Source: Candidatus Pacearchaeota archaeon (lineage in GTDB: Archaea > Nanobdellota > Nanobdellia > Pacearchaeales > GW2011-AR1). Taken from it: a stretch of DNA of 64,000 nt. Location: the NCBI GenBank assembly GCA_050303855.1, contig JBNLCO010000010.1, forward strand, positions 158,207 through 222,206, read 5' to 3'. The notes below the pieces were generated by a model. That model saw nothing but the letters and a program-made list of their open reading frames with translations. It made no database searches and had not been told where the DNA came from. How positions within the stretch are numbered: the stretch's first letter is position 1; each line of letters begins with the position of its first letter. A program made the translations under genes and the position numbers. Below are positions 36,279 through 37,346 of the stretch, piece after piece.

Positions 36279-37346
36279 TTAATTAAGATTATATTTTGCG
36301 AGGGTCTTATCCCAAAGATCGCTCTCTAAGAACCGAAGTATCTCATAATTAATTTGTTTTTCTAGACTTTGATCTACGTTTATTCCAAAAGCATAGTATT
36401 GTTGATCAAAAGTCTTTGTAGATAGTCTAATATTATACCCTTTTTTACTGATATAATATTTTAATATGGGCGTATCATAAACAAAAGTTTCAAGTTCTCC
36501 ATTTTCAATAGCTTCAAGACCTTCTTCAACTGTTTCATACCCGATAAATTTTACCCCTTTTTTGTTAAGAAAATCTGCGCTTGAAGTCTTTAATATTGAA
36601 CCGACTTTGGTTTTATTAAGTTGAGATATGGAATTAACCCCGCTTTCCAATCTGGCCACCATCAATCCAGCACTATAGTTGGCAATTATTATTCCATTTA
36701 GGATAAAAACTGCAACAATCCCCCAGAAAATAGTTAATATTTTTCCAGGGCGGCTTATGGGATATTGATTGCCAAAACCAATTGTTGAAACAATCATAAA
36801 GGAGAAGAACATGCCATCTAATATTCCGTCCCCAGCATAGGATCTAAATTGTTCTGGATTAATTTTCATCTCAACACGCCAAAATATGAGACCCATAACA
36901 AAAATCAAACCCAAAATTACTGAAAAGATAGATAAATTAAGTTTCATAAAAGCTTTTGAGAAGAAATAATTAACCCAAGAGAAAGATACATTTGAGGCTA
37001 TAGAAAGACTTGAAACAAAGAAAGGGATAGTCGTTTCCAATCCCTCGGACAACCTATGGGCGTTAACAGTCATGGCTCCGATTAAAACATCAAGGGAATC
37101 TTTATTGAGTCTCTCAACAATTTTTCCTGTTGCTTCATCATAAACATTAATATAATAACTATCTTCAGACAGGTCGATGTTCCGGGAAATATTTTTCCAG
37201 AGATCTATTACTAATCCTGTTTGTTCTCCTGTTACTTCATCAATCATAACAAAAGGAGGGGTAATTGGAGCCCCTACCTTAAGTGTTTCTGATGAAAAGG
37301 CTTGCAAACAAGATAATGAAACTAAAAAAACTGCAAGTATTTTCAT
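36279..37346 (-). CDS. GluR0-type ionotropic glutamate receptor-like ligand-gated ion channel (SBP lobe S1 - M1-pore-M2 - lobe S2)
   Basis: Signal peptide, then a type-3 solute-binding fold split by two TM helices flanking a K-channel-like pore STIGFGNQYP (TxGxG selectivity-filter motif). S2 lobe at the C-terminus. Confidence 0.55.
   Translation of the reverse strand: MKILAVFLVSLSCLQAFSSETLKVGAPITPPFVMIDEVTGEQTGLVIDLWKNISRNIDLSEDSYYINVYDEATGKIVERLNKDSLDVLIGAMTVNAHRLSEGLETTIPFFVSSLSIASNVSFSWVNYFFSKAFMKLNLSIFSVILGLIFVMGLIFWRVEMKINPEQFRSYAGDGILDGMFFSFMIVSTIGFGNQYPISRPGKILTIFWGIVAVFILNGIIIANYSAGLMVARLESGVNSISQLNKTKVGSILKTSSADFLNKKGVKFIGYETVEEGLEAIENGELETFVYDTPILKYYISKKGYNIRLSTKTFDQQYYAFGINVDQSLEKQINYEILRFLESDLWDKTLAKYNLN

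Follow-up and report, generated by a model that had tools for sequence, protein, structure and literature searches.

A GluR0-type channel gene with a PspA cassette on a Pacearchaeota contig and its relatives on large phage-like contigs

How does a gene with the look of a ligand-gated ion channel of the ionotropic glutamate receptor (iGluR) superfamily come to stand on an archaeal contig, and what might it do there? The question is raised by a stretch of 64,000 nucleotides, hereafter the window (positions 158,207 to 222,206 of contig JBNLCO010000010.1, assembly GCA_050303855.1, Candidatus Pacearchaeota archaeon), in which an initial sequence-only reading had picked out window positions 36279–37346 as a receptor with a K+-channel pore, akin to the prokaryotic glutamate-gated channel GluR0. 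Those coordinates proved exact, with the gene on the minus strand: the ATG lies at 37346 and the stop codon at 36279–36281, delimiting a single open reading frame (ORF) of 355 amino acids. The account favored here, which taken as a whole we hold with considerable confidence, is that this ORF encodes a GluR0-type channel subunit, with proposed gating by amino acids, that was acquired horizontally together with a cassette of neighboring genes. By its alignments the protein is a further member of a known family, with textbook GluR0 architecture and little to add on mechanism. It is the context that is unusual: an archaeal host, a phage-associated clade and a conserved cassette with PspA, a protein termed here X277 and a lipoprotein with an S74 domain.

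The protein reads, in order, as a signal peptide, a first lobe (S1), a transmembrane (TM) helix (M1), a pore helix, the filter motif STIGFGN, a second TM helix (M2) and a second lobe (S2), with which it ends. Kyte-Doolittle hydropathy finds hydrophobic segments only at residues 1–19, at about 131–162 (M1) and at about 201–231 (M2), and no C-terminal TM helix. An AlphaFold2 model, built with 13 homologs as input (mean predicted local distance difference test score, pLDDT, of 83; predicted template-modeling score, pTM, of 0.61), has an N-terminal helix at 2–16, long helices at 131–159 and 199–234, and between these a short pore helix at 171–187 followed by the filter loop; an alpha/beta lobe lies on each side of the TM helices, the second extending to the C-terminus. 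Hydropathy and model both lack an amino-terminal domain and a third TM helix (M4). The filter motif itself occupies residues 187–193, encoded at 36768–36788 as the reverse complement TCA ACA ATT GGT TTT GGC AAT. The signal peptide and the two hydropathy-defined helices predict that both lobes lie outside the cell. The sequence-only reading was thus right about the signal peptide and wrong to call the protein secreted: it is predicted to be an integral membrane protein, in which the signal peptide serves to export the S1 lobe.

That a type-3 solute-binding-protein (SBP) fold is here split by two TM helices and a TxGxG pore loop, as had been proposed from the letters, is something on which the profile matches and the AlphaFold2 model agree. 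The Pfam family Ion_trans_2 is matched above its cut-off by residues 145–215 (E=4.9e-9), SBP_bac_3 covers residues 22–352 and is split by the pore, and Lig_chan covers residues 140–247, the latter two just below threshold; S1 gives in addition a weak match to Lig_chan-Glu_bd. When searched with phmmer against the PDB, the protein finds at the top the ligand-binding core of Nostoc GluR0 (2pyy, 2e-11) and in second place that of Synechocystis GluR0, Slr1257 (1ii5/1iit, 1e-10), each in two pieces that correspond to S1 and S2; the S1 piece aligns to residues 3–98 of Slr1257 and to residues 5–92 of the Nostoc ligand-binding domain (LBD). The eukaryotic receptor subunit GluN1 is matched in one piece (4e-11) over channel residues 78–351, passing through the pore, with 'IIANYSAGLMV' of M2 set against the GluN1 gate segment 'SYTANLAAFLV'. 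The structural comparison points the same way, as a Foldseek search of the model against the PDB recovers the chains of GluA1/2/3 and GluN1/2 that comprise LBD and transmembrane domain (TMD) at about 1e-20 over some 370 columns. A profile search, a topology prediction and an alignment to Synechocystis GluR0 were the checks that the sequence-only reading had proposed for itself, and all three came out in its favor.

The reading that this evidence puts under most strain is one in which the two TM helices do no more than anchor an amino-acid-binding protein of the ABC type, with no ion pore at all. There are grounds for raising it, in that the Joint Genome Institute (JGI) annotates relatives of the protein as 'ABC-type amino acid transport substrate-binding protein', the best NCBIfam matches, which fall on the S2 lobe, are amino-acid-binding proteins of ABC transporters, and an ABC transporter is encoded about 6 kb off, at 42850–45935. 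However, that nearby system has an NMT1-type binding protein of its own, and the genes adjacent to the channel gene encode PspA, X277 and a DUF481 protein rather than ABC components. The insert that passes the Ion_trans_2 threshold and also matches Lig_chan finds, when searched alone, the K2P channels, NaK and KirBac1.1, with the pore helix and TIGFG falling on the TIGYG, TVGYG and TIGLG filters in the K2P alignments; the whole of S1, pore and S2 both aligns to and superposes on LBD-TMD chains of iGluRs; and nowhere is the family alignment better conserved than in the columns of the filter. A plain membrane anchor, the outcome that the sequence-only reading had named as its own undoing, is therefore judged exceedingly improbable.

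To delimit the family to which these columns belong, 1.84 billion cluster representatives (50% identity) were searched exhaustively with phmmer, and 189 of them match the channel with E<1e-30; since nearly all of the 150 matches listed are 320–470 amino acids long and align over nearly its whole length, the architecture of about 350 residues can be seen as that of a populated family. Of 199 aligned sequences, 107 have TTVGYGD as their filter and most of the others T/S-T-V-G-F/Y-G-D. More than 90% of the sequences retain the residues predicted to hold the ligand (R98 in 188, threonine or serine at 93 in 185, D291 in 183), and the Ser/Thr turn T254–S256 is conserved as well. By phmmer, R98 aligns to the arginine of the 'TINNER' motif of GluN1 and D291 to the aspartate of its 'IWDSAV' motif, which we take to be the glycine-binding R523 and D732. 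Because fold, pore and ligand residues are all conserved, the protein was filed in the GluR0/prokaryotic iGluR family as a member with a variant filter.

From these features we infer a mode of action in which a cleavable signal peptide would export the S1 lobe, and S1 (residues 20–120) and S2 (235–355) would together build an extracellular clamshell of the SBP-3 type. The clamshell may bind a free L-amino acid, with R98 and T93 reaching the alpha-carboxylate, D291 the alpha-amino group and the T254–S256 turn completing the site. Four subunits would surround an inverted M1-P-M2 pore with T-I-G-F-G as its filter, and closure of the clamshell would tug on the S1–M1 and M2–S2 linkers, such that the M2 bundle opens and K+ flows down its gradient. 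The coordinates of the parts invoked here, and of the neighboring genes, are collected in Table 1.

Table 1. Coordinates of the channel gene, its predicted parts and its neighbors in the window.
Feature	Position	Strand	Basis or remark
Whole ORF, 355 aa, GluR0-type ligand-gated channel subunit	36279..37346	minus	homology and model
Signal peptide MKILAVFLVSLSCLQAFSS, residues 1–19	37290..37346	minus	hydropathy; model helix 2–16; homologs align from M1-K2
S1 clamshell half, residues 20–120, with T93 and R98 (predicted alpha-carboxylate ligands)	36987..37289	minus	GluR0 LBD alignment
M1 TM helix, residues 131–159	36870..36956	minus	hydropathy, model
Pore helix and filter S-T-I-G-F-G-N, residues 171–193	36768..36836	minus	K+ channel alignment, model, family alignment
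M2 inner helix, residues 199–231, equivalent of iGluR M3	36654..36752	minus	GluN1 alignment, hydropathy, model
S2 clamshell half, residues 235–355, with T254-S255-S256 and D291 (predicted alpha-amino ligand)	36282..36644	minus	GluR0/GluN1 S2 alignment
Conserved upstream box TATTAACAATTAAAATTTT	37350..37368	minus	ends 3 nt before channel ATG, overlaps X277 stop codon
X277: 277-aa cytoplasmic protein, N-terminal winged helix, helical domain, acidic tail, no Pfam family	37363..38196	minus	synteny, model
PspA/IM30 family protein, 235 aa	38199..38906	minus	Pfam 3e-26, synteny
Predicted lipoprotein, 419 aa (MKRINFLLVLIFTLSVAFNGC...), low-complexity linkers, C-terminal Peptidase_S74 intramolecular-chaperone domain	39001..40260	minus	Pfam, synteny
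DUF481 protein (outer-membrane beta-barrel family in bacteria)	35541..36272	minus	6 nt downstream of channel

The channel gene closes a conserved cassette that runs S74 lipoprotein, PspA, X277, channel, with gaps of 94 nt between lipoprotein and PspA, 2 nt between PspA and X277 and 16 nt between X277 and channel. The cassette is present at six independent loci, and its order recurs on the contigs labeled L035/36, L037, L038, L042 and L172 at 28–43% identity; in L035, L038, L042 and L172 a small ORF with a TM segment and an acidic stretch precedes the channel gene. PspA also stands directly upstream of the more distant channel homologs in L043 and L044. Small hidden Markov models of the cassette proteins found neither PspA nor X277 within 10 kb of the chromosomal channel homologs of bacteria. 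The DUF481 gene, 6 nt downstream, was considered as a further conserved member and rejected, as it recurs after the channel gene only on the short contig L169, where a fragment of 37% identity follows the homolog (1099–1414); a protein of this outer-membrane type is in itself odd in an archaeon.

X277 has the look of a PspA partner that has so far gone undescribed, with a winged helix joined to a novel helical domain. Its model (pLDDT 86) has no full-length match in the PDB and finds there only the generic winged helix, and 20 of its 39 homologs give a weak match to HTH_45. An X277 homolog directly follows PspA in Pedobacter cryoconitis (L221:5271–6756), and a bacterial genome of 5 Mb carries, at L219:6001–9128, a run of spermine synthase, DUF350, X277, an RCK-type K+ channel, a 138-residue ORF, PspA and AdoMet decarboxylase. 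Operons that unite PspA with a K+ channel, DUF350 and polyamine enzymes have been described (Ravi et al. 2024, PMC11237479). Thus, chiefly because PspA and X277 accompany K+ channels of two gating types, the window channel may well act in a module for membrane stress or ion homeostasis; K+ flux or membrane potential is probably linked through the cassette to the membrane-stress response of PspA. If true, this recurrent link across gating domains points to a role for K+ flux in responses of the phage-shock-protein type.

A cassette that pairs a channel with PspA might alternatively be seen as a device for anti-phage defense or abortive infection, or for superinfection exclusion on behalf of a phage, in which the channel, on opening, would deliberately abolish the membrane potential while PspA limits the damage. 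The company that it keeps lends this some color: genes for TelA, VWA and AAA+ proteins stand beside it, phage-like contigs carry it, and jumbo Bacteroides phages have a pspA-like gene beside terD stress genes (PMC12880540). Yet no protein of the cassette matches any PADLOC defense model, and a ligand-binding domain that is predicted to face outward and keeps its amino-acid-binding residues fits the sensing of nutrients or solutes better than that of infection. We regard a defense function as unlikely and prefer the coupling of K+ flux to membrane stress.

Several observations nonetheless weigh against the account of an amino-acid-gated GluR0-type channel acquired with its cassette. With 28.1 bits the Lig_chan match stays below its cut-off of 30.8, the SBP_bac_3 match likewise falls just short of its gathering threshold, and the M2–S2 linker (residues 229–235), on which the proposed gating would depend, is of low confidence in the AlphaFold2 model. 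PspA is found near the channel in about eight of the ten low-GC loci with enough flank, L034 and L041 lacking it, and the link between the two is one of gene order. STIGFGN occurs once in the 199 sequences, in this channel, and asparagine at position 193 in seven, as against aspartate in 174, so that selectivity or gating may differ from that of GluR0. The last point opens the way to a protein with the GluR0 fold that, through D193N and Y191F, forms a non-selective cation channel, or else conducts little and senses amino acids for its cassette partners by signaling to them; the scaffold evidently tolerates loss of the K+ signature, as the filters of some relatives, TQRGIGH and TQAAAAD for example, are fully degenerate. 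Against it, the T-x-G-F/Y-G core is intact in the window channel, and its variant residues all have precedents among K+-selective channels, in part visible in the K2P alignments above: isoleucine at the second filter position in Kir and K2P channels, phenylalanine in K2P channels and GFGN in EAG/hERG. A loss of K+ selectivity is accordingly given only a small share of the probability, a little above that of the defense function. On the strength of these precedents K+ selectivity is the best guess, with the changes of valine to isoleucine and of tyrosine to phenylalanine both known from K+-selective channels, and the rare replacement of aspartate by asparagine after GFG probably alters the stability or inactivation of the filter.

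Where, then, are the relatives of this gene? A word-indexed search found 12, the best at 46% identity. Those on long contigs lie among tightly packed ORFs on the same strand, mostly without Pfam matches, and such neighbors as could be annotated include Phage_lysozyme, HNH, PcfJ, T4_Y16D, DHFR, NAD-ligase and DnaJ. IMG/VR contributes six matching loci, of which five are distinct; the viral contigs that carry them measure 119–461 kb, and the flanks encode dUTPase, ThyX, RtcB, PARP, radical-SAM enzymes, an intein and ligases, with a sigma-70 factor in L043; a scan of metagenomes adds L172, a contig of 494 kb. One phage-like flank has a CesT_Tir_1 match, and hairpin-plus-T terminators are present in L035 and L037. 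In sum, GluR0-like channels stand beside PspA on phage-like contigs of 87–494 kb and 27–35% GC (L035, L037, L038, L042, L172), and in a looser arrangement in L043 and L044. Among species-representative genomes only bacterial homologs of 24–33% identity were found (Flavobacteriales, Owenweeksia, Cryomorphaceae, many Alphaproteobacteria and a Zixibacterium), by a scan with a single peptide pattern that did not cover the genome of the window and is no proof that other archaea lack the family. In a neighbor-joining tree, the window channel nests among about 38 sequences that form one clade; seven of the low-GC phage-like loci belong to it and no locus from a bacterial genome does, with L043/L045 and L044 outside it. 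By this grouping of sequences it is a member of a clade associated with phage-like contigs and Bacteroidota, and not of an archaeal lineage of the family.

Precedents for such channels in phages were sought in several places. Comparing the channel and X277 by tblastn with 50,697 GenBank phage records gave no match; among the viral structures of BFVD the full fold appears in a single giant-virus entry and in no phage entry; and no report of phage-encoded GluR0-like channels was found in a literature library whose incompleteness makes this weak evidence of absence. A comparative review of jumbo phages mentions no ion channel, nor does the description of the jumbo Bacteroides phages in which pspA-like genes lie next to terD (PMC12880540). 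Should this context hold, very large phage-like genomes would carry a clade of ligand-gated channels that has gone unreported.

The host contig has to be judged on its own evidence. At 21198–23945 stand genes for DUF655, S13, S4, S11 and the Rpb3-type subunit D of RNA polymerase, in archaeal order, and subunit D is closest to Rpo3 of Thermococcus and Pyrococcus and then to eukaryotic Rpb3; a lone 5S rRNA gene is present, and the tRNA genes include one of 88 nt with an aberrant anticodon call. Boxes of the TTTAAAAA type lie some 30 nt ahead of the start codons of genes in the first 24 kb. The contig is taken to be archaeal because of the order of the ribosomal and polymerase cluster, the affinity of subunit D and these boxes, which upholds the attribution to archaea that had been made from the letters. 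The further remark that ligand-gated channels of this kind are uncommon in archaea accords with the survey of Ger et al. 2010 (PMC2950845), in which neither group of prokaryotic glutamate-receptor channels was found in archaea; no later report of archaeal iGluRs turned up in the literature, the incompleteness of the library again making this weak evidence of absence.

The channel gene lies beyond these markers, in a block from 24 to 64 kb that is wholly on the minus strand and rich in envelope genes of bacterial type (OmpA-like, DUF481, TelA, VWA). In the stretch 21198–24412 the archaeal cluster ends after the subunit D gene and the minus-strand block begins, at the place where L18e-L13-S9-RpoN often follow; this may be an insertion boundary. 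Ten genes at 40993–52275, among them those for an OmpA-like protein of 570 residues, VWA, OmpA of 517 residues, a 289-residue protein, TelA, an NMT1-type binding protein, a permease, an ABC ATPase and an AAA+ protein of 607 residues, are syntenic gene for gene, at 30–66% identity, with L223, an apparently bacterial contig of 660 kb, 44% GC and many glycoside hydrolases. The stretch resembles a large envelope/stress cluster of bacterial type set inside an archaeal contig.

It might be asked whether the block is archaeal at all, or is bacterial or phage DNA mis-assembled onto an archaeal fragment. Its bacterial-type genes, its ten-gene synteny with a 44%-GC contig and the phage-like or bacterial nature of the channel's relatives would all suit such a chimera, as would the difference in promoter-like boxes between the two parts. 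By contrast, the composition runs through the supposed junction: GC is flat across the window at 0.29–0.37, and tetranucleotide correlations among all window segments of 12–14 kb are r=0.87–0.92, equally high across the 24-kb boundary, as against 0.53–0.62 to L223 and 0.2–0.78 to the phage-like loci. Ribosome-binding sites of the GGAGG type precede operon-internal genes on both sides, for example X277, and the closest homologs, at 46% identity for the channel and 67% for the ABC ATPase, imply that the block does not come from a known bacterium or phage. A small probability, no greater than that given above to a loss of K+ selectivity, is kept for mis-assembly because the part of the window beyond 24 kb yielded no archaeal marker. 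We thus return to an archaeal contig that gained the cassette: as the relatives of the cassette sit on large phage-like contigs, horizontal acquisition by the archaeon is most likely, and the acquisition is most likely an old one whose composition has since been ameliorated.

The sequence element before the channel gene, which had also been pointed out as a conserved upstream motif, is real and belongs to this block. The 19-mer of Table 1 recurs identically before the S74 lipoprotein gene (40266–40284) and before a gene for 143 amino acids at 53851 (53858–53876), and in at least 12 genes between 24 and 64 kb ATTATTAACAATTAAAATTTT or a close variant of it ends 5–9 nt short of the ATG. The 16-mer TTAACAATTAAAATTT, allowing up to two mismatches, has eight occurrences in this block against 0.4 expected and none in 1–24 kb. 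The motif is absent from every related locus, and a scan of IMG/VR for the 16-mer gave only single matches at chance level. In the channel gene the box is 4–7 nt too near the ATG for the canonical archaeal TATA box of a leaderless transcript, and scans for sigma-70 promoters and intrinsic terminators stayed at background. The box could be a class of promoter, the operator of a regulon or a translation signal.

Elsewhere in the window a few features merit record in their own right. The 88-nt tRNA gene (17330–17417) has an uninterpretable anticodon, probably owing to an intron, and adjoins an ORF of 119 amino acids (17418–17777), 58 residues of which align at 40% identity to part of an HNH-type ORF from the viral contig L034. 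A protein of 867 amino acids (30699–33302) has the Shoulder and Vault_3 repeat domains of the major vault protein, unusual for a prokaryote, and a highly acidic one of 556 (33436–35106) consists of repeats of about 55–60 residues of the '...DDDDITSFLGEVNYGTEFCKALVP...' type, with only a weak match to DUF5363.

The larger pattern invites a tentative proposal, to which we give rather less than even odds: a mobile four-gene envelope module may circulate on elements resembling jumbo or mega-phages (87–494 kb) and have been captured by the archaeon. If so, tailed phages would encode ligand-gated channels of the iGluR type, and could use channel and PspA to set the membrane potential of the host according to external amino acids; the superfamily would then have its first archaeal member in the window, obtained across domains. 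Independently of this proposal, if the context holds, an iGluR-superfamily gene is present in an archaeal genome, where the dedicated survey of 2010 found none. Its apparent horizontal gain, as opposed to descent from an ancestral archaeal gene, bears on the origin of the eukaryotic iGluRs.

A comparison with known systems shows how far the parallels extend. With the GluR0s of Synechocystis PCC 6803 (Slr1257) and Nostoc punctiforme the channel shares its domain order, without an amino-terminal domain or a third TM helix, along with the SBP-3 clamshell, the conserved arginine and aspartate ligands and a pore loop of the K+-channel type. The lobes are only about 20–25% identical, its filter is STIGFGN rather than TTVGYGD, and it differs in its archaeal host genome, its PspA cassette and its clade of phage-like contigs. 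With the eukaryotic iGluRs (GluN1, GluA2) the LBD-TMD fold is held in common, the alignment to GluN1 running through M1, pore and M3 and taking in part of the SYTANLAAF gate region; unlike them, it has no amino-terminal domain, M4 or C-terminal domain, and its filter is a GFG of the K+ type in place of the Q/R/N site. Operons of YjfJ-class PspA (PMC11237479) resemble the window in linking PspA to a K+ channel, and X277 occurs in that operon type, in L219; their channel senses an intracellular ligand through RCK, whereas that of the window has a clamshell predicted to be extracellular, and by Pfam the window genes at 35.5–42.8 kb include no CesT/Tir, DUF350 or polyamine gene and have the S74-domain lipoprotein instead. 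Among viral proteins, the CroV protein E3T502 is the only BFVD entry with a full iGluR-like LBD-TMD fold (E=1.5e-23), while the small Kcv-type K+ channels of chloroviruses match the pore only. Both of these come from giant viruses of eukaryotes, whereas the relatives of the window channel are carried by uncultivated phage-like contigs of 87–494 kb.

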